A stretch of DNA of 62,991 nucleotides, counting the filler, from Collodictyon triciliatum (Eukaryota): NCBI GenBank assembly GCA_043381765.1. It is 14 parts of 14 records of this genome, joined end to end, with 100 filler letters (N's around TTAATTAATTAA, not from the genome) between each part and the next. Parts side by side here need not be neighbours in the genome. Positions count along the whole stretch, not along the records: positions 54,087 to 58,489 come from JBHJMP010006139.1; 13 more parts are not named here. One strand, 5' to 3'. Shown piece by piece: positions 19,687-62,200 of the stretch. The notes under the pieces were generated by a model that did no database searches, was not told the DNA's origin, and saw only the letters and a program-made list of their open reading frames with translations. Within the stretch, counting starts at the first letter, position 1; every line of letters begins with the position of its first letter. Position numbers and translations under genes: made by a program.

Positions 19687-21097
19687 TTTTTTTATTCTTC
19701 CTTTCAACTTTGTGCAGGATAGTGAAGGTGTTGGATTTGGTTCTCTAGCCATCGTTTGCATGGGCGCTACTTGGTGACATTGAGGTGGCAGAGAAGTAGT
19801 CGGTAATCAGGAATTGCATCCTGCGGTTCGGCCTGTAGCCTGGGTCTTCTGCCTGCATGAGGGGGACAAGGCGAGGTTTAATATCCTTCTCAGCCTCTTT
19901 CCACATGTCTCTTCTCACAGGGTCTGATTAGTAGAGAACGTGCAGGTGGCGAAAGAGGCTGTTGAGGAAAGAGATTTGTATGATGTCATCCAGTCTATTA
20001 CAGGAATGGGTGGCTGGTTGTTGAGTCTTGCTTTGCGTGAGTGCATGCGCGCCATCCACATAGTCCATAGCAAATGGCCTCGCGTCACTGCCCAGAATGT
20101 TTTTGCCTCTGGACGCAGCTGTTGCAGAGGCCCAAATATCGCCTGTATTGGGCCAACAGCCGCAGCCGTCTTGAGTGTCAGTCGAAGAATCTCGCCGGCT
20201 GTTTCGCGCAGGTTTTGAGGGAAGGGACATTGCACAAACGTGTGCTCCATGGGTTCATCACGGTTGGTGCAAAGTGTACATTGTTGGGAGTCTTTGCCAG
20301 CTTTTGCCGCGCGTGTGCCTATCCATAGCTCCCTATTGGTGATATTAAGCATTAGAGCGATGATTTGGAAGGACTTGCGGTGTTCGTGCTTGTCTCCAGC
20401 TTGCGGTGAGCGGGGTGTGGGTGATGCCCAGTGTTTCTCCCCATCGTTGATGTTTTGACTTTTTGTAGGGAGTTGGCGGCGATATATTGTATCGAAAGAA
20501 TTCGGAGTAGGCCATAGCCATAGATAACTGAGTATACTGGGCACCGTTAGACGAGCGTTCGTTCTTGAGGCGGAAAAAGAATGGCGACGGGATGTCGTAT
20601 GAGATTGGTCAGCCTGAGCGCCATTTTCCTTTGTTATTCAGGACGGCTGTGGTTGGCTGTGCATCTTGTGTGCGGAATGCGGTGGAGCCTGGCGTTGTGA
20701 TGTATGAGCCGTCTTCTTTGAATGAGATTTCTCTGACGGTGGCCGCGTTGCCTTCGTGAACCTGTTTGGTGATGCAGAAGCCTTTCTGGTTGTCCCAGCA
20801 TATTTGTCTTGCTGCTGATGGCTCGTTTAGGGGTATTGTCATTTCGTAGTGATTATACAGAATCTGCCAACGCGAGAGCAAAGGCATTGGTGCGTTTGGA
20901 GGTGGTCGTGTGATTGTTCTTTGTTTCAACTGTGTTTTGAAGTCTCCACACAGTTTTGTGATGAGTTTCTAGATCACATTTTGCCAAAACCCTTTCGGCT
21001 GCATGAACATGTCCGTCCACCACTTCATGGTCAGTGATATACATGCGGGTTTGGGTGTGATGAGTCCAACACCTAAAACCCCCTTTGAGAAAGAGAG
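19687..21097 (-). mobile_element. 5'-truncated L1/Tx1-like LINE (ORF2 C-terminus, 3' UTR, A-tail) with probable TSD
   Basis: KGVLGVGL..MKWW..FWQNV thumb region; CTLC..EPMEHTFVQC zinc-binding motif; FW..LLWTMWMAR; internal stops. Ends GCACAAAGTTGAAAGGAAGAAT(A)7. TATGATAATTT is repeated at 19679-19689 and 21103-21113. Confidence 0.85.
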
Positions 21098-45079: not shown

Positions 45080-48000
45080 TCTGGAGAAATTAGTATTGTC
45101 CTGCGCTGATGATAGAGACCCAGTGCCTCACGATTTGCTCTCCAACTTATACTCTGAGCTTGGAGAAGACGACTTTACTCACAGTGTTTTGCAGAGGAGG
45201 TCGTTCGGAGAAGAGACACGTGTGGCATTATCGCTGCAACAATATGGATACTGGCAGAAATCTCAAGAACTTATCTTAAATATAATGATAAAAAATGCAC
45301 ATTCTGCAACTGCAGAAAACCGAAATCATGAGATTTCTTTATGGCAAGACAAGTGGTTGACATGTTGCCGTCACCTCAATCAATGGGATACCTTGGTGGA
45401 CTTTTCAAAATCAACCAATATACCTGAGCTGTTGCTCGAGTCATCATGGAAGCAAGGAGAATGGAGTACGATGAAAGAAGCAGTATCATTTAACAGTCCA
45501 GATACTATTCAATCTTACAAGAATATAATGTATCAGCTCTATGTTCTAGTTCAAGGAAGAAAATTACCAGAATTTAAAGAAATGTTGTCCAAATGCTTTA
45601 ATATGTTATTGATTCAATGGCAAAATCATCCATTTACTCCTTGTCATGCGCACAGCAATCTACTCCCAGTGTTTCAGCAAATGATTGAACTTCAAGAATC
45701 TTTGACTATTATACAAGAGTTTGAGAACTCGGAACGAGCTCATGTAAGCTGATTCAAATTCAGAAAAAATGCTTTAAAACAAACCCTAGATTATTTTTTT
45801 ATCTACTGGTGTATCCCATTACGTGTTAATTTTTTTCATGTTACGTTCTTTTACGTTCTTTTACATTCTTTTACATTCTTTTACATTCTTTTACATTCTT
45901 TTACATTCTTTTACATTCTTTTACATTCTTTTACATTCTTTTACATTCTTTTACATTCTCTGTCGTTTCCCTTTTACGTTCTCTGTAATTTTTCTTCCTT
46001 TTCTTTTCCTTCTTTCCTGTCAAGGATTTTTAATGTTATCAATATTTTTCTATTCTTAAAACCTGAACAAGACTTCTAATATTAAACCCCCAAGGCTTTA
46101 CGGCTCATTCGTGGCATTCTCTCTGCATGGAGAGAAAGGTTGCCCAATGCATGGGAAGACATGACCGTATGGAGCGATCTCCTGCAGTGGAGGCATCATC
46201 TATTTTCTGTTATCACATCGTCGCTACAGGCATCTGACCCGACTCCATCTTCTTCTTTCATGGGATATCACGAAACCGCATGGACTATCAACAAATATTC
46301 CAGAATAGCTAGAAAACATAGACTTGTTGATGTATCCCTCTCTGAACTTAACAGGATATACAGCTTGCCTAATATCGAGATATCGGATGCATTCGTCAAG
46401 CTAAAAGAACAAGTAAAGTGTTATTTTCAAGTGCCTGGTGCATACAAGACTGGTTTGGACACAATCAACAGCACAAACTTGGATTATTTTACAAAACTGC
46501 AAAAAGCAGAATTCTTTCGACTTAAGGCTGAATTTCAGCACTTGCTTGGTCAGAACGAGGAGGCTAACAACTCTTTTACAACATCGATGCTGACAGATGA
46601 TAATTTGTCCAGTGGATGGATTGCATGGGGTCTTTTCTGTGACCAAATTTTCCAACAAGACCTCAAGAAGCTCCATTGGGCAGAGTATGCATTAACATGT
46701 TTCCTGTCCGCGGCTCGAACAAAGTCAGACCGCGCCCGAAGATTGCTCTCTAGAGTGTTGGTACTCCTCACGTATGACGATGAGTCAGGTATGCTCTCGA
46801 AGAACTTTGAAACAAACGCAGAGAACATCGTTCCGTGGGTCTGGTTGTCTCATGTTCCATATATGTTGAATGCTGTCCAACATAGCGACAATTCAGTGTT
46901 CAAAAAGATATTGACAAAACTCTGTAGTGTGTATCACCAGGTGATTTTTATTCTATTTTATTAATCCATTTTCATTATATTTTCATTCTATTTTTATTCA
47001 TCTCAATCACTCTTAAGATATTATCGAATGAAACAACGTAATGATATTCTAATTGAAAATAAGACACACATATGGTCAAAAGGAATTCAATATATTCTTA
47101 TTTTTATTTATTCATTTCAACATTATTTAGAGCATGTTTTACCATATTCGCACCTTTCTTCTTCGACAAAGGCGGGTTGCGATGGAGCATATACCCTATC
47201 AGTTACTTTCGTCTTTGCCTCACAAATCAATGAGCCCATGGCAACTAAGTTTGCAATCAACTGCCCATCCTCTATCTGCTCCGGTAATTCAGATCAATAT
47301 TTGTTTTTTGTTTTTTTCCTTAGCTTTGTAGTTCAATTAAGCTGCAACCTTCAGCTTATCTTTTTTAAAAAAATTCTTTTTATTAATATTAATATCTTTA
47401 CTCTTCGATATAGGGAATGAACCAGTCCAGCGCGAATGCTCAATGTGCGTAATCAATATTTTCATTACGTGGTTTCGTTGTTGTTTTTTTTAAGAAAAAT
47501 TAAATGTATCTATTAGGCTTGGCGTTTGCCGAATCCCTAATGACTAACCTAAGGAAATCCAACGTTACTCTTGTTAATGAGCTCGAGCACATTGTTGAGG
47601 AAATATGTAATCGACTGCGACCAAGTCCAGAAGATGAGATGATTTCTCAATTGAATAACTTGTTAATACACTGTATTAAAGTATGATAACAAATGACTTT
47701 CTCCTTTGTTATTTTGCAAATTGATATAAAGATAAAATAAAAACACAGCTTATTTTGATTAGAGTTATATTTATTTTATCTTTTACATCATAATTTATCA
47801 TGAAAAGTAAACTATTATTCCCTATAAGACCCCCTTTAAGACGATTGTGGACAAGCAACCCTTGACTGGCTCACTACCAGAACACTTGGACCATATCTGG
47901 TCTTTATTCTTTCAATTCGATGATGGGCACCCGAGAAGTGAAGTGGTATGATATTATAATTTGTTAATTCGATCGATTTTGTTTTTGCTATTTTTAAATT

Positions 48001-53745: not shown

Positions 53746-54129
53746 CGCTATATATATAAAAGGAAGAGAATTACAAACAAGCAGGCGAGTGATTCTCACC
53801 GTGTAAGAGTTAAAAAAAAATTAAACGGTTCGACAACTAAGAAAAGTCACTCAAAACTAACTAATCAATAAAATTCAATATAGGGAAAAAGATAAAAAAG
53901 ATAAAAAAGATAAAAAAGATAAAAAAGATAAAAAAGATAAAAAAGATAAAAAAGATAAAAAAGATAAAAAAGATAAAAAAGATAAANNNNNNNNNNNNNN
54001 NNNNNNNNNNNNNNNNNNNNNNNNNNNNNNTTAATTAATTAANNNNNNNNNNNNNNNNNNNNNNNNNNNNNNNNNNNNNNNNNNNNAATTATGAATCATG
54101 ATTTATCTATTAATTATTGTTTTTTTCAG

Positions 54130-57100
54130 TCTTTGGATAAAGTGGGAGACCTGCTGGTTGGATTTTTCTTGGAGTCTTTTGAGAATTCGTTCTTGTTGTC
54201 TGTTCTGAATGTGCGTCTTGGAAAGCATCAGACAGAAGGTATGCAATTTATTATATTTTTGATGAATTTTTGTCATGAATATGAGTTATATATGGATACG
54301 TTCAATAATTTATCAATTTACAGATGCGAAGACTGCTGATTACTTGAATCTTGGTCGTGTCTACAAGAACCTCCAAAAGTAAAAAAATAAAAAAACGTTA
54401 ATGATTGTTAAATAGGACATGACATGATGTTTATAATGCCAACTTTCTAAAATAAAAATTAAAAAGCTGGGCTGAGTCCATGGTCTACTACAAGAAATGT
54501 CTCAATTCAGTCGAGAAAAATGAAGATGATTCCCTGCGTATTGCTACCATTCATGAAGAAATGGGAATCATCTATCAGCAACAGGATAAGTAAGGATGGC
54601 TTTCAACTGTAAAATAAATTATGAATAATGTTTAAAAAAGGAATTATTCTTATTTGCTTATTAAATAGGATCGATGAAGCTCTTGATGAATACAAGAAAT
54701 CACTGGACTTTAGAGTCAAACAACTGGGTGAGAATGACTTGCAAGTGGCCCAATCACATGACCGCTTCGGAGACATCTACGTGAAGCAGTCAAAGTAATA
54801 ATTGATCATTTATAGACGTTAACATTCTAACCTTTTTTTTATTTTTGTAAATATATTTGCTGATCAATTTTTTATGATAGGAATGAGCAAGCTCTAGATG
54901 AATACACAAAGGCCATGGAAATCCGCCAAAAGAAAGTCGGAAACGAGCATCCTCTTGTCGCAACATCGTACCAGAACTATGGCCATGTCTCTCTTGCTGG
55001 GAAAAAGTAGCACATATTCATTCGATTAAAGACAGTTTTTAATCTACTTATAATTTGAAAATATTAATATAATTGAATCATCAAGGTATGAAGAGTCTAT
55101 TGAAAACTACGAGAAGGCGAAATCAATCCTTGAAAAATCGCTGGGAGCTAAGCATGCATCTGTTGCCTCGACAATCCAGTTTATTGCAAACGTTCATCTT
55201 GCCAGTGGAAAGTTTGGATTTCTAAACTACAGATATTTTCATAAAACAATTATTATTCAATTTTTGCAAAATATATTTGGCTTCATATATTTCATTGTAT
55301 GGACTCTATTTGGGGTTAAAATTATGCATCATATAATCCTAACAAAATAAATATCAAAACTATCGTCTTATATAGGAAAACTGAGGCCTTATCCTCACTT
55401 AAGCAATCGCTGGATATTTTCATGTCTGCCCTGGGTGAAAATCATCCCAATGTTGTGGCCTGCTATGAAATGATTGGAGACATCAGCCATGATTTGAAGG
55501 AGTATCTCTTTTTATTAATTATTATTACATATTTAATTGAAAACAATAATTTATTTACTCTTATTATCTTAGCTTTAAGGGTGCTCTGGAGGCGTATACA
55601 AAGACGCAGGATATTCGCGTGAGAACACTGGGCGAAAGACATGCTGATTATACAACTGCTCTGGAGAATGTTGGCCGAACAAACTTTGAGCTTCAAAGGT
55701 AGATTTTTCTATTTGTTAAAAATTCGAATATTTTGATTAAAAGCAGTAAAAAAAACAATAAATATTGAATAATCAATAATATGCATGCATTTAGATTGGA
55801 CCAAGTAGTTGAATACTTCCAGAAGGCAGATGCGTTCAGAAAGGAGACCAAGACCATCATGTCAATGAAAGACACCCATCAGATTGACAACATTATCCGC
55901 CTCATGAAAGACAAGAAACAGCATGAATTAGTCATTCAGCTGTACAAAACAGCTGCTGTTAGACATGGTGAAAAGTCATCCTATGAAAATTGGGACTGCT
56001 GGGTGGCTTGTGAAAATGCGCACCAATACTGCAAAGAGAACAAGCTGTATGAAAGTGGCGTGGCATTCTGGGCTGAGATGAGAGACAGATTCGCAGACAA
56101 ATTCGGATGGATTCACCCCAGAACATTAAATTCTTGCGAATACTTGTCCGTTCATTCAAAAGAAATCGAAATCAACAAAGAGCCTGTTGAGTTTGCAAGA
56201 GTCAAGGAATTCATCAGTGAAACTCTTGATGATGCAAAACTGGATGAGGAATGGAATCGTGAGCAAATCATTGCGTCATTATTCAGAATTGTCTACATGT
56301 CAAAGACTGATGAGAGCAAATCAAAGGCTGCATCTGATGCAATCACACTTTTGAATTTCATGAATGTTTCGTTCGGTGGGATGGATTTATCAAACATCAA
56401 AATTCCAAATGCAAATCTCAGTAATTCAATTCTTGATGGTGCAAACTTTGCTGGTGCAAACTTTGCTGGTGCCAACTTGGATGGTGTTGATTTCACAAAT
56501 TCGATGCTTGGTGATTGTGTTTTTGATAATGCGCATATGAATAATGTGAAATTCGGAATTCCTCATGATAAATTAGAAGGCCATACAAATAATGTCAATA
56601 GTGTTTGCAGCATTCAAGGACCGAATGGTGAAAAGTGGCTGGCTTCTGGAAGTAGCGATAAAACAATACGTATTTGGGATGTAGCCACAGGAAACCAAAT
56701 CAAAACATTAGAAGGACATACAGAAGCTGTCAATAGTGTTTGCAGTATTCAAGGACCGAATGGTGGACATTGGCTGGCTTCTGGAAGTAGAGATAAAACA
56801 ATACGTATTTGGGATGTAGCCACAGGAAACCAAATCAAAACATTAGAAGGTCATACAGAATGGGTCTGGTGTGTTTGCAGTATTCAAGGGCCGAATGGTG
56901 AAAATTGGCTGGCTTCTGGAAGTAGGGATAAAACAATATGTATTTGGGATGTAGCCACTGGAAATCAAATCAAAACATTAGAAGGTCATGCATATTTTGT
57001 ATTGAGTGTTTGCAGCATTCAAGGACTGAATGGAGAACAATGGCTGGCTTCTGGAAGTCAAGATAGAACAATACGTGTTTGGGATGTAGTGACAGGAAAC

Positions 57101-58051
57101 CAAATCAATACATTAGAAGGGCATACAGGCTTTGTCATGAGTGTTTACAGTATTCAAGGACCGAATGGTGAAAGTTGGTTGGCTTCTGGAAGTGAAGATA
57201 AAACTATACGTATTTGGGATGTAGCCTCAGGAAACCAAATCAAAAAATTAGAAGGACATACAGGAGCTGTCTGGAGTGTTTGCAGCATTCAAGGACCGAA
57301 TGGCGAAAAGTGGCTGGCTTCTGGAAGTGATGATAAGACAATACGTATTTGGGATATAGTGACAGGAAACCAAATCAAGACATTGGAAGGACATACAGAA
57401 TCTGTCATGAGTGTTTGCAGCATTAAAGGACTGAATGGTGAAAATTGGCTGGCTTCTGGAAGTGATGATAAGACAATACGTATTTGGGATGTATCCTCAG
57501 GAAATCAAATCAAAATATTGGAAGGTCATACAAATGATGTCAATAGTGTTTGCAGCATTCAAGGACCGAATGGCGAAAACTGGTTGGCTTCTGGGAGTGA
57601 TGATAAAACTATACGTATTTGGGATGTAACCACAGGAAACCAAACACACAGCCTGCAAAAGTCAGAAGTGACCTACACCCAAGGAAAATACCTCGTCAAG
57701 AAAGAAAAGCCAGACGAAGTCATCGCAGTATTCAACAGAACAAGCGATGCGATGAACATGATTGACACCAACAGAATACAAGATGCAAGGACAGTCCAGA
57801 TTATCGGCCCAAGAAAGCTGCAAGGTGGAAACATCCAAATCAAAAATGTCACGGGATTAAGTCGATTCAACAAATCCCTTCAACTTTCTATCGGTGCTGT
57901 TTCCTATGATGCGGACTTTGCTGCCTATTGTGAGCAGGGTAAGTTCACCAAGTTCCAGGCTCGGATGATGGCTGAGTGCTATGAGAATGGATGGGGTGTG
58001 GAGAAGGACACTGAGAAGGCGGCTGATTGGAGACAAAAAGCCACAGCTTAA
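54130..58051 (+). CDS. TPR (kinesin-light-chain type) - pentapeptide - 8x WD40 - Sel1-like protein (5' truncated)
   Basis: 42-aa TPR exons (..LGENHPNVVACY..IG..), then one 55795-58051 exon with AASDAITLL..DLSNIKIPNANLS..ANFAGANLD, eight 45-aa GH..WD repeats and CYENGWGVEKDTEKAADW. Confidence 0.92.
56573..57652 (+). repeat. Eight 135-bp coding tandem repeats (high-identity WD40)
   Basis: Units start at 56573, 56708, 56843 ... 57518 with exact 135-nt spacing. Confidence 0.95.
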
Positions 58052-59283
58052 CAAGGTAAGTAGTATAGTAAATGCATATTAATATATGTTCGTTAACTAG
58101 AATCATTTTAGATGGAGAGATTCTCTGCGTTTTTTTCAAGCAGACCTCCGCTTTTTTCCCACAAGGACGCTCCATGAAAACAGAATAAAACCATAAAAAA
58201 TTGACAGCAAAGCTGATCGATCTCTGTTGCAACCATTGTATTTCTATTCCTTTCCTTTTTCTTTTCTTTTCTTTTTTCTTTTTCTTCTTTTCTTTTTTTT
58301 TTCTTCTTTTTTCTTTTTTCTTTTTTCTTTTTTCTTTTTTCTTTTTTCTTTTTTCTTTTTTCTTTTTTCTTTTTTCTTTTTTCTTTCTTCTTTTTTCTTT
58401 CTTTTTTCTTTTTCTTTTTCTTTTTTTCCTTGTCTTCTTTTTTCCTTTTTTTCTTTTTTCTTTTTTCTTTTTCCTTTTTTCTTTTTTCTNNNNNNNNNNN
58501 NNNNNNNNNNNNNNNNNNNNNNNNNNNNNNNNNTTAATTAATTAANNNNNNNNNNNNNNNNNNNNNNNNNNNNNNNNNNNNNNNNNNNNTTTTGTTTTTT
58601 GTTTTTTGTTTTTTACTTTTTGCTTTTTTGTTTTTTTGTTGTTTTTTGTTTTGCTTTTTTCATTTTTTTTTTTTAACGCTCAGTAAAACCAAAATAACTT
58701 AAAATATGTTTGCTGGATGTAGGGTGACTTGATATGAGAAATAGAAAACCCAGCAGGGGCACGAAAAGCCGCCGGGTTGGAGGACGGGGGTATGGACTCT
58801 GATCGCGTTGTGCCCAAGCCGCATGTTTTGACAAGCAAAGACCCAAATTGGCGAAAAATATTACCGTATATAATATATCATTAAAATTATAATAATACCA
58901 TAAATAATATACGATATTTAGTAGTTATAATAGTAATAGGTACTATATTATAGTTTATATTTCACTAAATGGAATCATTCATAGCCACTTATCTACGTCC
59001 ATAGCGTTCCTGGGTTTGGAACCTGACTACTGTGCATGACAAGTCTGTCGCATCAGATGCTCCATGAACGCAAGAAAACTGTGGCAAAGCGCCCCCATTC
59101 TCCCACCCATAGTCTGCGATACGTTTGCATCTCATCATCTAGGCTGCAGAGACACTTTGATGCCAGAAGCAAAAGCAGAGGCAGAGGAAGAAGCAGCGTT
59201 TTGTCCTACCTGCCACTCATTTCTCCGTTCACCATGTCGTAACACCTCGTGTCTTTTTCCATTCAGGATTCATCTGCTTCAGG

Positions 59284-62200
59284 ATGCAGAGGATTGCTCT
59301 CTTGCAAGCAGGCAGCCGAGCAACGACCACGCGCTTGCTCTTGCTCTTGCTCTTGTTCGCTCTTTCGCTCCTTGTTGCGGAGGCGTCTGTGACTCAGCAG
59401 AGTGCCTTTACTCCAGAGGCAGCAGCTTCGTACGACCTCTTCGGCGCAAGTGTTGATTTGTCCAGCTCTTTTGCCTTTGTGAGCGCACCCGATCGCTCCG
59501 TCGGTTCTGCAGAGCGCCAAGGAGCCGTGCAGATTTTCCAACGAAGTGAAGCCCTTTGAGCCGCGACGTCTCTTTTGACAGCCCAGGATGGCCAGGCGTT
59601 CGATGGCTTTGGGCATATAGTTTGTCTCACAGAACTGCGAGCAGCTGTTGGAGCTCCACATCATGATGGAGGAAGCCCGCCACTCCAAGATAGCGGTGCT
59701 GTGTTTGTATACACACTGAGTGCCGGGTCTTGGGGTCTTTCAACAAAGCTTCTGGCCTCCGATGCCGCCTCCAACGACGGTTTCGGCTCATCTCTTGCCT
59801 TGAATGACGAGATGCTTTTGGTCTCTGCGCCTCAGAAAAACGTCGGTTATTTGAGAGGTGTTGGAGCTGTCTATGTTTTTTCGCTTGGCGGCTCTGCTGT
59901 TTGGTCTCAAGTGGACACACTCAGTCCAGTTGATGTCCTCCCGGGAGACTTTTTCGGAGTCTCTGTCGCTTTGGGAGGAGCTAGTAGCACGACTTTTGCT
60001 GTTGGTGCCTGCGGGCAGGGCGATTACGGAGTTGTTTATATCTTCACAAGACAGTCGACAGTAGGCATGCATTTGTTTTCTCAGCAGCAGAAAGTCATCC
60101 CGGCTGGCGTTTCTAAGGGTGGTCGCTTCGGTTCTTCTCTTGCCATGTCCGGTTCTTATATCTTAGTCGGGTCACCACTTGACACAGTGAATGCAAAGTC
60201 TCAAGCAGGTTCCGTGTCAGTTTATACGCTGAATGGGTCTGTATGGAGCTTACAGCAAATACTCGCTGCCCCCGATGCAGCCAGCGGAGATAATTTCGGA
60301 GTTTCTGTTTCCTTAAGCCCAGGAACTGCTATTGCCCTCATCGGTAGCAAATATGCGGATATCGGATCTCAAACGAACCAAGGCGCATCATACTTGTTCA
60401 CACGGGCACATTCTACGTGGCAAATGGATTCGAAAGTGACATCTAACAATGGGGAATCGAATGACGAGTTTTCATCAGTTGCATTGACAGAGTATCATGC
60501 ACTCGTGGGCGCACCTCGGAAGACCCTGTCAGGTGTGTCAACACTCACTAATGCCGGTTCAGCATATGCTTTCTCTGTCTCTGTTAGCCAACAAGGTTTT
60601 TTTTTTTTAAAAAAAAAGGTTTTAAACATGGGTATCAATATAACATACCATACTATGAAAGACCTCTAAGACTGGTGAGGAAAATGCCTCAGAATCTTTT
60701 AAATTTTACATAAAACAGGTTTCACTTCCACATTCTCCAACAGTCAGTCCCCATCGTCCTCCAATAGCCAGTCTCCATCGTCCTCCAACAGCCAATCTCT
60801 GTCATTCTCCAACAGTCAATCTCTGTCATTTTCCAATAGCCAGTCTCCATCGTCCTCCAACAGCCAATCTCTGTCATTCTCCAACAGTCGATCTCTGTCA
60901 TTTTCCAACAGCCAGTCTCCATCGTCCTCCAACAGCCAATCCTCCTTATCATCCGATACTCAATCACAGACAAGATCTGCCGCTATCATGTCCGTCTATG
61001 CAGACAATAAGTCTAAATCTGAACATTTAGGATATCAAGTAGCTGTCAGAAATGGGATTGCAATCATATCTGTACCTGTGTGTGTAAATCCCTCTACAGA
61101 GAAAACATGCGATGGAGGTCACTTTTTGATTTACAAAAAGAATCCAACAGGCTGGATTTTACACCGCAAGGTGCGAAGTCCTTTTCGAAATAGAGATAAT
61201 AAGTTTGGATGGACTATGGAACTGAACGACAATTACCTTATCGTTTCATCCCCAGACTCAAAATTTAGAAGCGTAGAAGTTGGTTCAGTCGTATTCTACA
61301 CATGGAGCACAATTGCGGATTCCTTTGTGAAAGACTCTGTTATTAATTTTCGGAAAATGAAACCCAAGTACAACTTAGGAAGCTCTATGTCCAACTTTGT
61401 CAATACGACAGTTGTAGGAATGCCAGAATATGATGCATCCTCTGATGCCGAAAATTCTGGTGGTGTTCATGTCTACAAAAAGATTGAAGACAAAAGATGG
61501 GGGAAAAGAGTTACCATCACTGCGCAAAGTCCCGTCACTAATGGCAAATTTGGGCACTCTGTGTCAATGCACGGTAGCTTAAGATTTGCTGCATCCAACT
61601 TCCCCTATGATGGAAGTGCACACGCGGTCTTTATTTTCGACTATTCCAGTTCAAAATGGTCACTCCGGCAAACGATATCAAGCGGTGGAAAGCTAGGATT
61701 TGGATGGAGAATTCGTTTTTTCGAGGGCGTGTTGTATGTTTCTGCTATCGATGATAGCGTCGATGAGTCCTATGCGGGGTCAATATCCACCTATGAGCTG
61801 AGCCAAGGTGAAGAATACACATATAATTCTGATATCAAGCCGAACGATATCATCCCTGGAAAACACTTTGGATACAGTTTCAGCCAATCTGAAGATGGAA
61901 GTAGACTCGTTGTCGGCGCAAATCCGTGCCAGCAAGGACAATCATGCGGCATAAAGGGTATGGACTTAATTTACAATCATGATAAGCTTAGTTCACTTAA
62001 TTGCACATATTAATTTATTTTAAAGAAAAAAGAGCAAATTTTAACTTTTTTTTTTTAAAAAAAAAATAATCGAAAAAAAATACACCATACCATAAGGCTC
62101 CATTTACATCTTTACGAGAGATGATAATCGATGGATAGAGTGTTACAGCGCAGATTCGCCGGTCTTGGACGGCTCAGATGGGTTCGGTTTTGATGTGGCC

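Follow-up and report, generated by a model that had tools for sequence, protein, structure and literature searches.

Introduction

Proteins of the DUF4062/TeTIR-NACHT family, to which TEP1, NWD1, NWD2 and NPHP3 belong, carry C-terminal WD40 or TPR repeats that have been proposed as signal sensors, and TEP1 is an active NADase, according to the excerpts of two preprints on which we draw (bioRxiv 10.64898/2026.05.01.722283, 10.64898/2026.09.21.753143). In the NLRs of fungi, the WD repeats are highly conserved and a few positions of their binding face are under diversifying selection, as stated in the portion of Dyrka et al. 2014 (PMC4986451) cited here. In the present work we describe a partial gene of Collodictyon triciliatum (GenBank assembly GCA_043381765.1) in which TPR and WD40 repeats are joined in one chain by a pentapeptide-repeat block. 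The gene occupies positions 54130-58051, on the plus strand, of a 62,991-nucleotide (nt) stretch of DNA built from joined contigs, hereafter the window, and it is likely to be part of a large gene of STAND/NLR-like type, of which the 3' half to two-thirds lies on this 4.4-kb contig and the rest beyond its end. The original prediction for this locus was an NLR-like receptor with TPRs in place of the NACHT domain; the sensor-module part of that reading is borne out by colinearity with a NACHT-bearing homologue, whereas the apparent replacement of the NACHT domain is most likely an artefact of truncation.

The same N-terminal arrangement as in the DUF4062/TeTIR-NACHT family, a DUF4062 domain adjoining a NACHT-type NTPase and followed by helical and repeat domains, is present in P0053, a relative from Diphylleia rotans; this part is seen in P0053 and not in the window. 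The repeats that form a C-terminal superstructure in STAND/NLR-like and DUF4062/TeTIR-NACHT proteins were found here as WD40 and TPR in a single chain, while the animal proteins are described, in the excerpted text, with either one or the other. Further differences are the pentapeptide beta-helix that joins the two repeat types, the Sel1-like tail and, in P0053, an additional N-terminal CH domain. Judged from its sequence, the gene would represent a variant architecture within the DUF4062/NACHT STAND family, one that combines TPR with WD40 repeats. The fungal NWD/HNWD proteins (HET-E, HET-D, HET-R), as portrayed in the cited portion of that literature, share with it tandem near-identical WD40 repeats that vary at few positions per repeat; in contrast, the unit is 45 amino acids (aa) long here and 42-43 in the fungal proteins, TPR and pentapeptide repeats lie upstream, and the host is not a fungus. 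APAF-1 (NB-ARC plus WD40 propellers) offers a mechanistic analogy alone, that of a STAND NTPase held off by propellers until a ligand binds, in the material consulted; unlike the present protein, it belongs to the NB-ARC clade and has a CARD effector and two propellers without TPR or pentapeptide repeats. In the Creative Commons (CC)-licensed PMC and bioRxiv texts, we found no description of a eukaryotic NACHT-family protein with TPR, pentapeptide and WD40 repeats, which supplementary domain tables could nevertheless list, nor of such genes in Diphylleia; the literature found there on NACHT, pentapeptide repeat and WD40 in combination concerned prokaryotic systems throughout.

Structure and expression of the gene

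Reading in three frames and inspection of splice sites yielded a partial gene on the plus strand with nine exons, encoding 1057 aa in a frame that is open throughout and ends at a TAA stop (58049-58051). Its features are as follows.

54087-54129 (+): 3' end of an upstream intron, AT-rich and ending ttttttcag; the contig begins here
54130-54238, 54324-54378, 54467-54589, 54669-54794, 54881-55006, 55086-55211, 55376-55501, 55573-55698 and 55795-58051 (+): the nine exons
54130-54378 (+): exons 1-2, pre-TPR helices and first TPR; RNA joints 54238/54324 and 54378/54467, colinear with P0053 from residue 1068
54467-55698 (+): exons 3-8 (123 nt, then five of 126 nt), each one 42-aa KLC-type TPR unit; per-exon TPR_12 matches and RNA joints
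55795-58051 (+): exon 9, 2257 nt, with linker, pentapeptide block, WD40 array, tail and stop; bridged by RNA contig X3 record 20
55796-56311 (+): helical linker, eight helices in the model, resembling a degenerate KLC-type TPR solenoid; AlphaFold2 and fold matches
56312-56359 (+): conserved junction helix with an AAS.A.TLLNF motif, capping the pentapeptide beta-helix; model helix 172-187
56354-56554 (+): pentapeptide-repeat beta-helix of about 12 rungs; PF00805, PF13599 and model
56573-57652 (+): eight WD40 repeats of exactly 45 aa (135 nt); Pfam, Tandem Repeats Finder and unit alignment
57653-58048 (+): conserved C-terminal tail, modelled as a small number of strands, a loop of low confidence and four helices at the end; alignment and model
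57965-58042 (+): one Sel1-like repeat; PF08238, 25.5 bits
58056-58111 (+): 56-nt GT-AG intron in the 3' untranslated region, 5 nt past the stop; a loose end of X1 after 58055 reads the letters at 58112
58256-58489 (+): T-rich low-complexity run, a 7-nt repeat, at the 3' end of the contig

All introns are of the GT-AG type, 71-164 nt long and with a GC content of 0.21; intron 1 is in phase 1, and introns 2-8 are in phase 2 at the same spot within each TPR unit. Public sequencing runs were aligned at a likeness of at least 88%: X1 (RNA by guess), X3 and X7 (freshwater metatranscriptomes) and X2 (DNA). The share of sampled words was at most 0.13 in any single run, so that the shares alone carry no claim on habitat or strain. 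Joints in the RNA contigs of X1, X3 and X7 match the eight predicted introns, seven of them exactly, and at intron 3 the joints, seen in diverged copies, differ from the predicted boundary by 1-7 substituted letters. The DNA run X2 showed zero depth at all listed joints, and its contigs span intron sequence. The contrast first noted between an intron-dense TPR half and a WD half in one exon is confirmed by these eight joints. Furthermore, X3 record 20 (576 nt) starts in exon 6, crosses exons 7 and 8 and extends into exon 9 as far as 56020, and the TPR half and the large exon consequently belong to one spliced RNA; separate transcripts for the TPR and WD parts, a test set in advance, were not what this record showed. 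Recoding of the TAA codon was also considered and ruled out, as the stop falls within a few residues of the ends of the homologues.

That the locus is an assembly chimera or a functionless pseudogene fragment, as a short contig ending in low-complexity sequence might suggest, is scarcely credible in view of the 1057 codons open across nine exons and of the spliced RNA contigs in three RNA-library runs. Contigs of the independent DNA run X2 moreover span exon-intron boundaries, one of them with 0 other letters across 55671-55822 (152 nt).

The truncated 5' end and the homologues of Diphylleia

Exon 1 opens at a splice acceptor located 43 nt from the start of the contig, and has no start codon. 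X3 record 17 agrees with 54128-54236 at all but 1 letter and continues upstream for at least 255 letters that are unlike the genomic intron; the 30 visible letters of this upstream part translate to YKDAYGSLA, with a K across the junction, and the aligned place reads YKDTYGSLIK in P0053 and YKDAYANLIK in P0054. In addition, an X7 contig prolongs the genomic intron in the upstream direction as far as the end of an exon, after which it reads GTAATT. The RNA continuation and the match of YKDAYGSLA(K) indicate that the gene extends upstream in register with P0053, its NACHT-bearing homologue.

The relatives were obtained by HMMER with the linker and pentapeptide block against 1.84 billion representatives, which gave 15,754 matches at E ≤0.001, 150 of them listed. 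Nearly all of the 15,754 are generic pentapeptide proteins, and the linker itself is matched, among the 150 listed, by P0052, P0053 and P0054 (query 2-259, 34-42% identity), by P0162 in part, and by two short fragments, P0056 (80%) and P0070 (70%). EukProt lists P0052, P0053, P0054 and P0162 as Trinity transcripts of D. rotans. Each of them is colinear with the spliced protein: residues 1-1056 of the latter align to 167-1215 of P0054 (41.9% identity) and residues 1-978 to 1068-2139 of P0053 (40.7%), and identity is 29.9% with P0162 and 30.1% with P0052. Pre-TPR helices, TPRs, linker, junction motif, pentapeptide block, 45-aa WD40 repeats and Sel1-like tail follow one another in the same order as here. 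P0053 and P0052 differ in having many more WD repeats, and the mean repeat identity across the four proteins is 52%, 42%, 32% and 31%, against 79% here; since these relatives are known as transcripts alone, intron positions cannot be compared. The sole complete one is P0053, with 2619 aa in the order CH-DUF4062-NACHT-helical-TPR-linker-pentapeptide-WD40, whose N-terminal domains, found within its first 994 residues, are as follows.

P0053, residues 191-277: CH, 43.3 bits
P0053, residues 379-470: DUF4062, 42.4 bits (cut-off 24.7)
P0053, residues 653-817: NACHT-type NTPase; NACHT 25.5 bits (cut-off 26.7), nSTAND1 24.8 and NPHP3_N 23.2

The first residue encoded in the window aligns to residue 1068 of P0053, downstream of its NACHT domain. 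The starts of P0054 and P0162 correspond to P0053 positions 902 and 930, a short way past the NTPase, and on that account the two bring no independent evidence for NACHT. The more distant P0125 (with its member P0188) has a clear NACHT domain of 59.5 bits at residues 92-261 and the junction motif from about residue 505, in accordance with the earlier statement that a unit of junction motif, pentapeptide block and WD40 follows a NACHT domain in other proteins; the agreement does not extend to the Mortierella, Mycoavidus and ciliate proteins named there. P0125 and P0188 (3631 and 4127 aa) share this motif, a short pentapeptide block and a WD40 array with the present protein; in contrast to it, their NACHT and helical domains abut the motif directly, without a TPR array, and they are intron-less single open reading frames on 13-18-kb contigs. 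As a further observation, two stretches of P0052 match the linker query, and P0094 carries the junction motif and pentapeptide block twice, each time before WD40-like repeats; the motif-pentapeptide unit therefore behaves as a duplicable cassette.

Pfam scans detected no NTPase domain on the contig (54087-58489), yet, because the gene runs off its 5' end, this lack does not count as an observation on the protein; in a window of short contigs, nothing can be read into a domain that is "missing" where a contig ends. A complete or nearly complete NACHT-less protein, a switch-less two-sensor scaffold in which TPRs replace the NTPase, would agree with the contig taken at face value and with P0052, which opens with a methionine followed by TPRs and, over 2520 aa, has no NACHT in the best 25 of 41 families. 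Nevertheless, P0052 is a Trinity model that may itself be 5'-incomplete, the contig ends 43 nt before an exon 1 that starts at an acceptor, and at least 255 nt of RNA lie upstream, homologous to the post-NACHT region of P0053, in which DUF4062 and NACHT precede the same TPRs. We consider such a protein very unlikely, and truncation of a larger STAND/NLR-like gene is the reading that we follow below. On the strength of the alignment with P0053, a NACHT domain is quite likely to lie upstream of the TPRs of this gene, and the missing 5' part would most likely encode a post-NACHT helical domain, the NACHT NTPase and an N-terminal effector.

Several searches for further relatives were negative. A word-indexed protein search among longer proteins with residues 1-255, pentapeptide block included, returned 51 matches, all of them generic pentapeptide-repeat proteins, and with linker residues 1-185 there was no match among 91 longer and 233 near-length candidates; as P0053 and P0054 were missed too, the latter blanks reflect the word index rather than absence. 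For genomic relatives with an upstream flank in metagenome contigs, 227 pattern matches were obtained with the linker and 162 with a 3-row alignment, and tblastn confirmed none of them. A search with the spliced product by tblastn revealed no second copy of the gene among the 14 pieces of the window. In the non-repeated tail, place 58000 is covered by as many as 21 different contigs of X1, which hints at many paralogues or variants and at a multi-copy family.

TPR array, linker, pentapeptide block and tail

The TPR array, linker, junction motif, pentapeptide block and eight WD40 repeats that had been noticed at the outset are all present, and only the Sel1-like end is weak. When seven exons of the TPR region were tested singly, TPR_12 (PF13424) was the best Pfam family in six, with E values of 2.8e-6 to 0.11 and 13-28 bits each. 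The top single-exon score (27.9 bits) falls below the cut-off of 30.1 because one exon holds a single 42-aa unit of a 77-position model, and the colinear P0054 scores 136 bits for the same family. The TPR units are old duplicates, 28% identical on average and 38% at most; a recent exon-intron duplication was considered and rejected, the introns having in common just AT-rich matches of 11-13 nt.

No Pfam family matched the 190-aa linker. An AlphaFold2 model of linker and pentapeptide block, built with five homologue rows, reached a predicted local distance difference test score (pLDDT) of 85.6 and a predicted template modelling score (pTM) of 0.75, and displays nine helices followed by about 12 beta rungs, over which strand bridges recur at a spacing of five residues. 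The best fold matches of the linker are the TPR domains of KLC1 and KLC2 (E 0.005-0.05), and weak matches to the pentapeptide proteins QnrB1, Rfr23 and Np275 were also found, the best matches of the whole model lying at E 0.005-0.08. The TPR solenoid probably extends, in degenerate form, through the linker, whose last helix caps the beta-helix. The AAS.A.TLLNF junction motif in that helix is common to P0053, P0054, P0162, P0125, P0094 and P0056. For the pentapeptide block itself, PF00805 scores 48.3 bits, above its cut-off of 20.2, and PF13599 scores 39.4 bits. Within the block, a 15-nt tandem repeat at 56433-56486 (3.6 copies, 89% matches), in which ANFAG is repeated, suggests recent slippage.

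The C-terminal tail (132 aa) retains 20 of the 24 invariant columns of a 147-aa piece when aligned with the four Diphylleia proteins. Its model has a pLDDT of 65, rising to 83-94 in the four-helix end. The Sel1 match (PF08238), at 25.5 bits, does not reach the cut-off of 30.7; in fold searches the tail most resembles Sel1 proteins, at E 0.06-0.4, and the ESM Atlas gave no usable match for it. Since fold searches with the two models, linker-pentapeptide and tail, returned nothing at E 0.001 or better, both the TPR-like reading of the linker and the Sel1-like reading of the tail are weak.

The intron contrast had originally been ascribed to fusion with an acquired or retroposed module. In such a scenario, the pentapeptide-WD40 block, or the whole large exon, would be a recent acquisition, gained through retroposition or horizontal transfer, that became joined to a TPR gene rich in introns. 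The lack of introns over the 2257 nt of exon 9, in contrast to an intron every 126 nt in the TPR half, agrees with this scenario. Base composition can be cited in the same sense, with a GC content at third codon positions (GC3) of 0.27 in the pentapeptide and WD parts (56366-57652) against 0.47 in the TPR exons, as can the occurrence of the junction motif-pentapeptide-WD40 unit behind NACHT in the unrelated, intron-less P0125. In contrast, the linker (55796-56365, GC3 0.48) and the tail (57653-58048, GC3 0.52), which belong to the same exon, match the TPR exons and are spared the drop. The eight WD units are copies of one, so that their codon usage is effectively a single sample, and descent from one founder unit may account for the low GC3 of the pentapeptide and WD parts. 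The four Diphylleia proteins moreover share the full domain order at 30-42% identity, hence any fusion would be old and predate the divergence from Diphylleia, and the 45-aa repeat period is also found in P0053 and P0054. Recent acquisition is thus improbable, and the intron contrast is more simply explained by an ancient growth of the TPR array through exon-plus-intron duplication and by growth and homogenisation of the WD array inside one exon.

Variable positions in the WD40 array and the putative role of the protein

The WD40 family (PF00400) matches the array in eight stretches with 277 bits, together with many beta-propeller families, and Tandem Repeats Finder reports 56572-57644 with a period of 135, 7.9 copies, 85% matches, no insertions or deletions and a score of 1468. 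The best sequence match among solved structures is chain Tako8 (query 260-613, E 8e-66), which we take to be a designed eight-fold symmetric propeller. Units are 78-93% identical in DNA and 79% on average in amino acids (71-89% over 28 pairs). Variation is concentrated at unit positions 6, 7, 9, 21, 28 and 38, which are 16% identical, compared with 88.6% for the other 39 positions. Of the 266 non-synonymous differences between pairs of units, 141 fall in these six among the 45 columns, whereas the 147 synonymous ones are scattered along the whole unit.

This pattern makes the recognition part of the original prediction plausible, and a receptor would fit both the family context and the fungal precedent; an immune or non-self role is proposed by analogy with those systems. 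Alternatively, the same architecture could serve a housekeeping, non-immune function as an NPHP3-like ciliary or TEP1-like particle scaffold, with the repeats as assembly platforms. Matches to NPHP3_N (23.2 bits, P0053) and TPR_NPHP3 (89.7 bits, P0054), both below their cut-offs, and the CH domain of P0053 are in line with such a function, and non-immune roles have been described for animal DUF4062-NACHT members, as in a paper on NWD1. On the other hand, several features argue against a scaffold: the repeats are nearly identical yet hypervariable at six positions, a single species has no fewer than four diverged paralogues, and numerous variant contigs come from one run. Equally, the linker finds relatives, among the 150 listed matches, just in Diphylleia and two short fragments, unlike what is seen for a conserved single-copy gene. 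We regard a housekeeping role as rather unlikely, and continue with the interpretation of the locus as part of a STAND/NLR-like sensor gene.

A number of observations weigh against that interpretation. The evidence for an upstream NACHT domain consists of one full-length homologue, at about 41% identity, and of 30 visible letters of upstream RNA, none having been seen from C. triciliatum itself, and the NACHT match of P0053 is just below the Pfam cut-off (25.5 against 26.7 bits). All four relatives come from one species as transcriptome models, three of which lack their 5' ends. As to the effector, none of human NPHP3, NWD1 and NWD2 proved active as an NADase when assayed, according to the excerpted text of one of two preprints (bioRxiv 10.64898/2026.05.01.722283 / 10.64898/2026.09.21.753143). 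The mean repeat identity of 79% falls short of the fungal threshold of at least 85% identity over at least 100 aa, as given in the cited portion of PMC4986451. A crude Nei-Gojobori estimate of the ratio of non-synonymous to synonymous rates (dN/dS), with recombination ignored, is close to 1.9 for the six codons, compared with about 0.21 for the others, and a value above 1 is here descriptive only, because the columns were picked after the data had been viewed and gene conversion breaks the assumptions of the method. Lastly, six of the 15 joints listed (27 in total) are non-canonical, each in a single X1 contig within 54213-56061 (for example 54213/54465 and 55453/55587). These six are probably misaligned paralogues or shifts of TPR register, and may stem from paralogues with another number of TPR units; some carry replaced letters between their two sides.

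In the architecture that we propose, the sensor arm would start with a KLC-type TPR alpha-solenoid running into the degenerate TPR-like linker, proceed through a short and presumably rigid pentapeptide beta-helix with its conserved capping helix, and end in a putative eight-bladed WD40 propeller, with blades near-identical save for six positions, and a small Sel1-like helical tail. The missing effector region may correspond to that of the one full-length relative, a CH domain and a DUF4062 TIR-like domain. By analogy with APAF-1, TEP1/NWD1 and fungal NWD/HET-E, the repeat arm would keep the NTPase off; binding of a ligand to the variable face of the propeller and/or to the TPR groove could then free the NTPase, and the NACHT domains may subsequently oligomerise and gather the effector domains. 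The NACHT domain of the gene itself, the identity of its effector and an immune or non-self role are all inferred.

If the upstream NACHT and DUF4062 domains were confirmed, two repeat types described as alternatives would be united via a pentapeptide beta-helix. We tentatively suggest, as a possibility that is at present somewhat doubtful, that a deep-branching freshwater protist lineage sharing this family, among sampled sequences, solely with the CRuMs flagellate Diphylleia has an expanded DUF4062-NACHT repertoire with HET-E/NWD-like diversification of a TPR-pentapeptide-WD40 sensor. This would amount to an independent, non-fungal diversification of repeat-based receptors coupled to an NAD-cleaving effector, and would extend the fungal pattern, in which WD repeats are nearly identical apart from hypervariable positions, to a group of protists that has been little studied. 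It would also bear on the spread of repeat-shuffling diversification and of TIR-like NADase effectors across eukaryotes.

The remaining contigs of the window

The window consists of 14 pieces, arranged by size from 4414 down to 4402 bp and with GC contents of 0.32-0.44, which are split by 13 spacers of the form N44-TTAATTAATTAA-N44 (4415-4514, 8924-9023, ... 58490-58589). The TPR/WD40 gene sits on piece 13 (54087-58489, 4403 bp; JBHJMP010006139.1). Because separate contigs have been joined, genes across a spacer are unlinked, and nothing else in the window is physically tied to this gene. A 9-nt GATAAAAAA-type repeat at 53890-53986 closes the preceding contig, and low-complexity ends, there and at 58256-58489, are the likely cause of the assembly breaks. 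No Rfam family was detected anywhere in the window. Among its other frames, 11 of the 19 with at least 170 aa were scanned against Pfam, seven of these 11 giving no match. An open frame at 19918-20637 (-) contains a zf-RVT domain (29.1 bits) and is probably a retroelement remnant. A FAT domain (146 bits) in an open frame at 46086-46961 (+), on a separate contig, marks part of a TOR/PIKK-like kinase gene. Finally, the last contig, whose GC content of 0.43 is above that of piece 13, carries at 59560-62010 (+) two open frames with FG-GAP_2 repeats, which score 188 and 41 bits.

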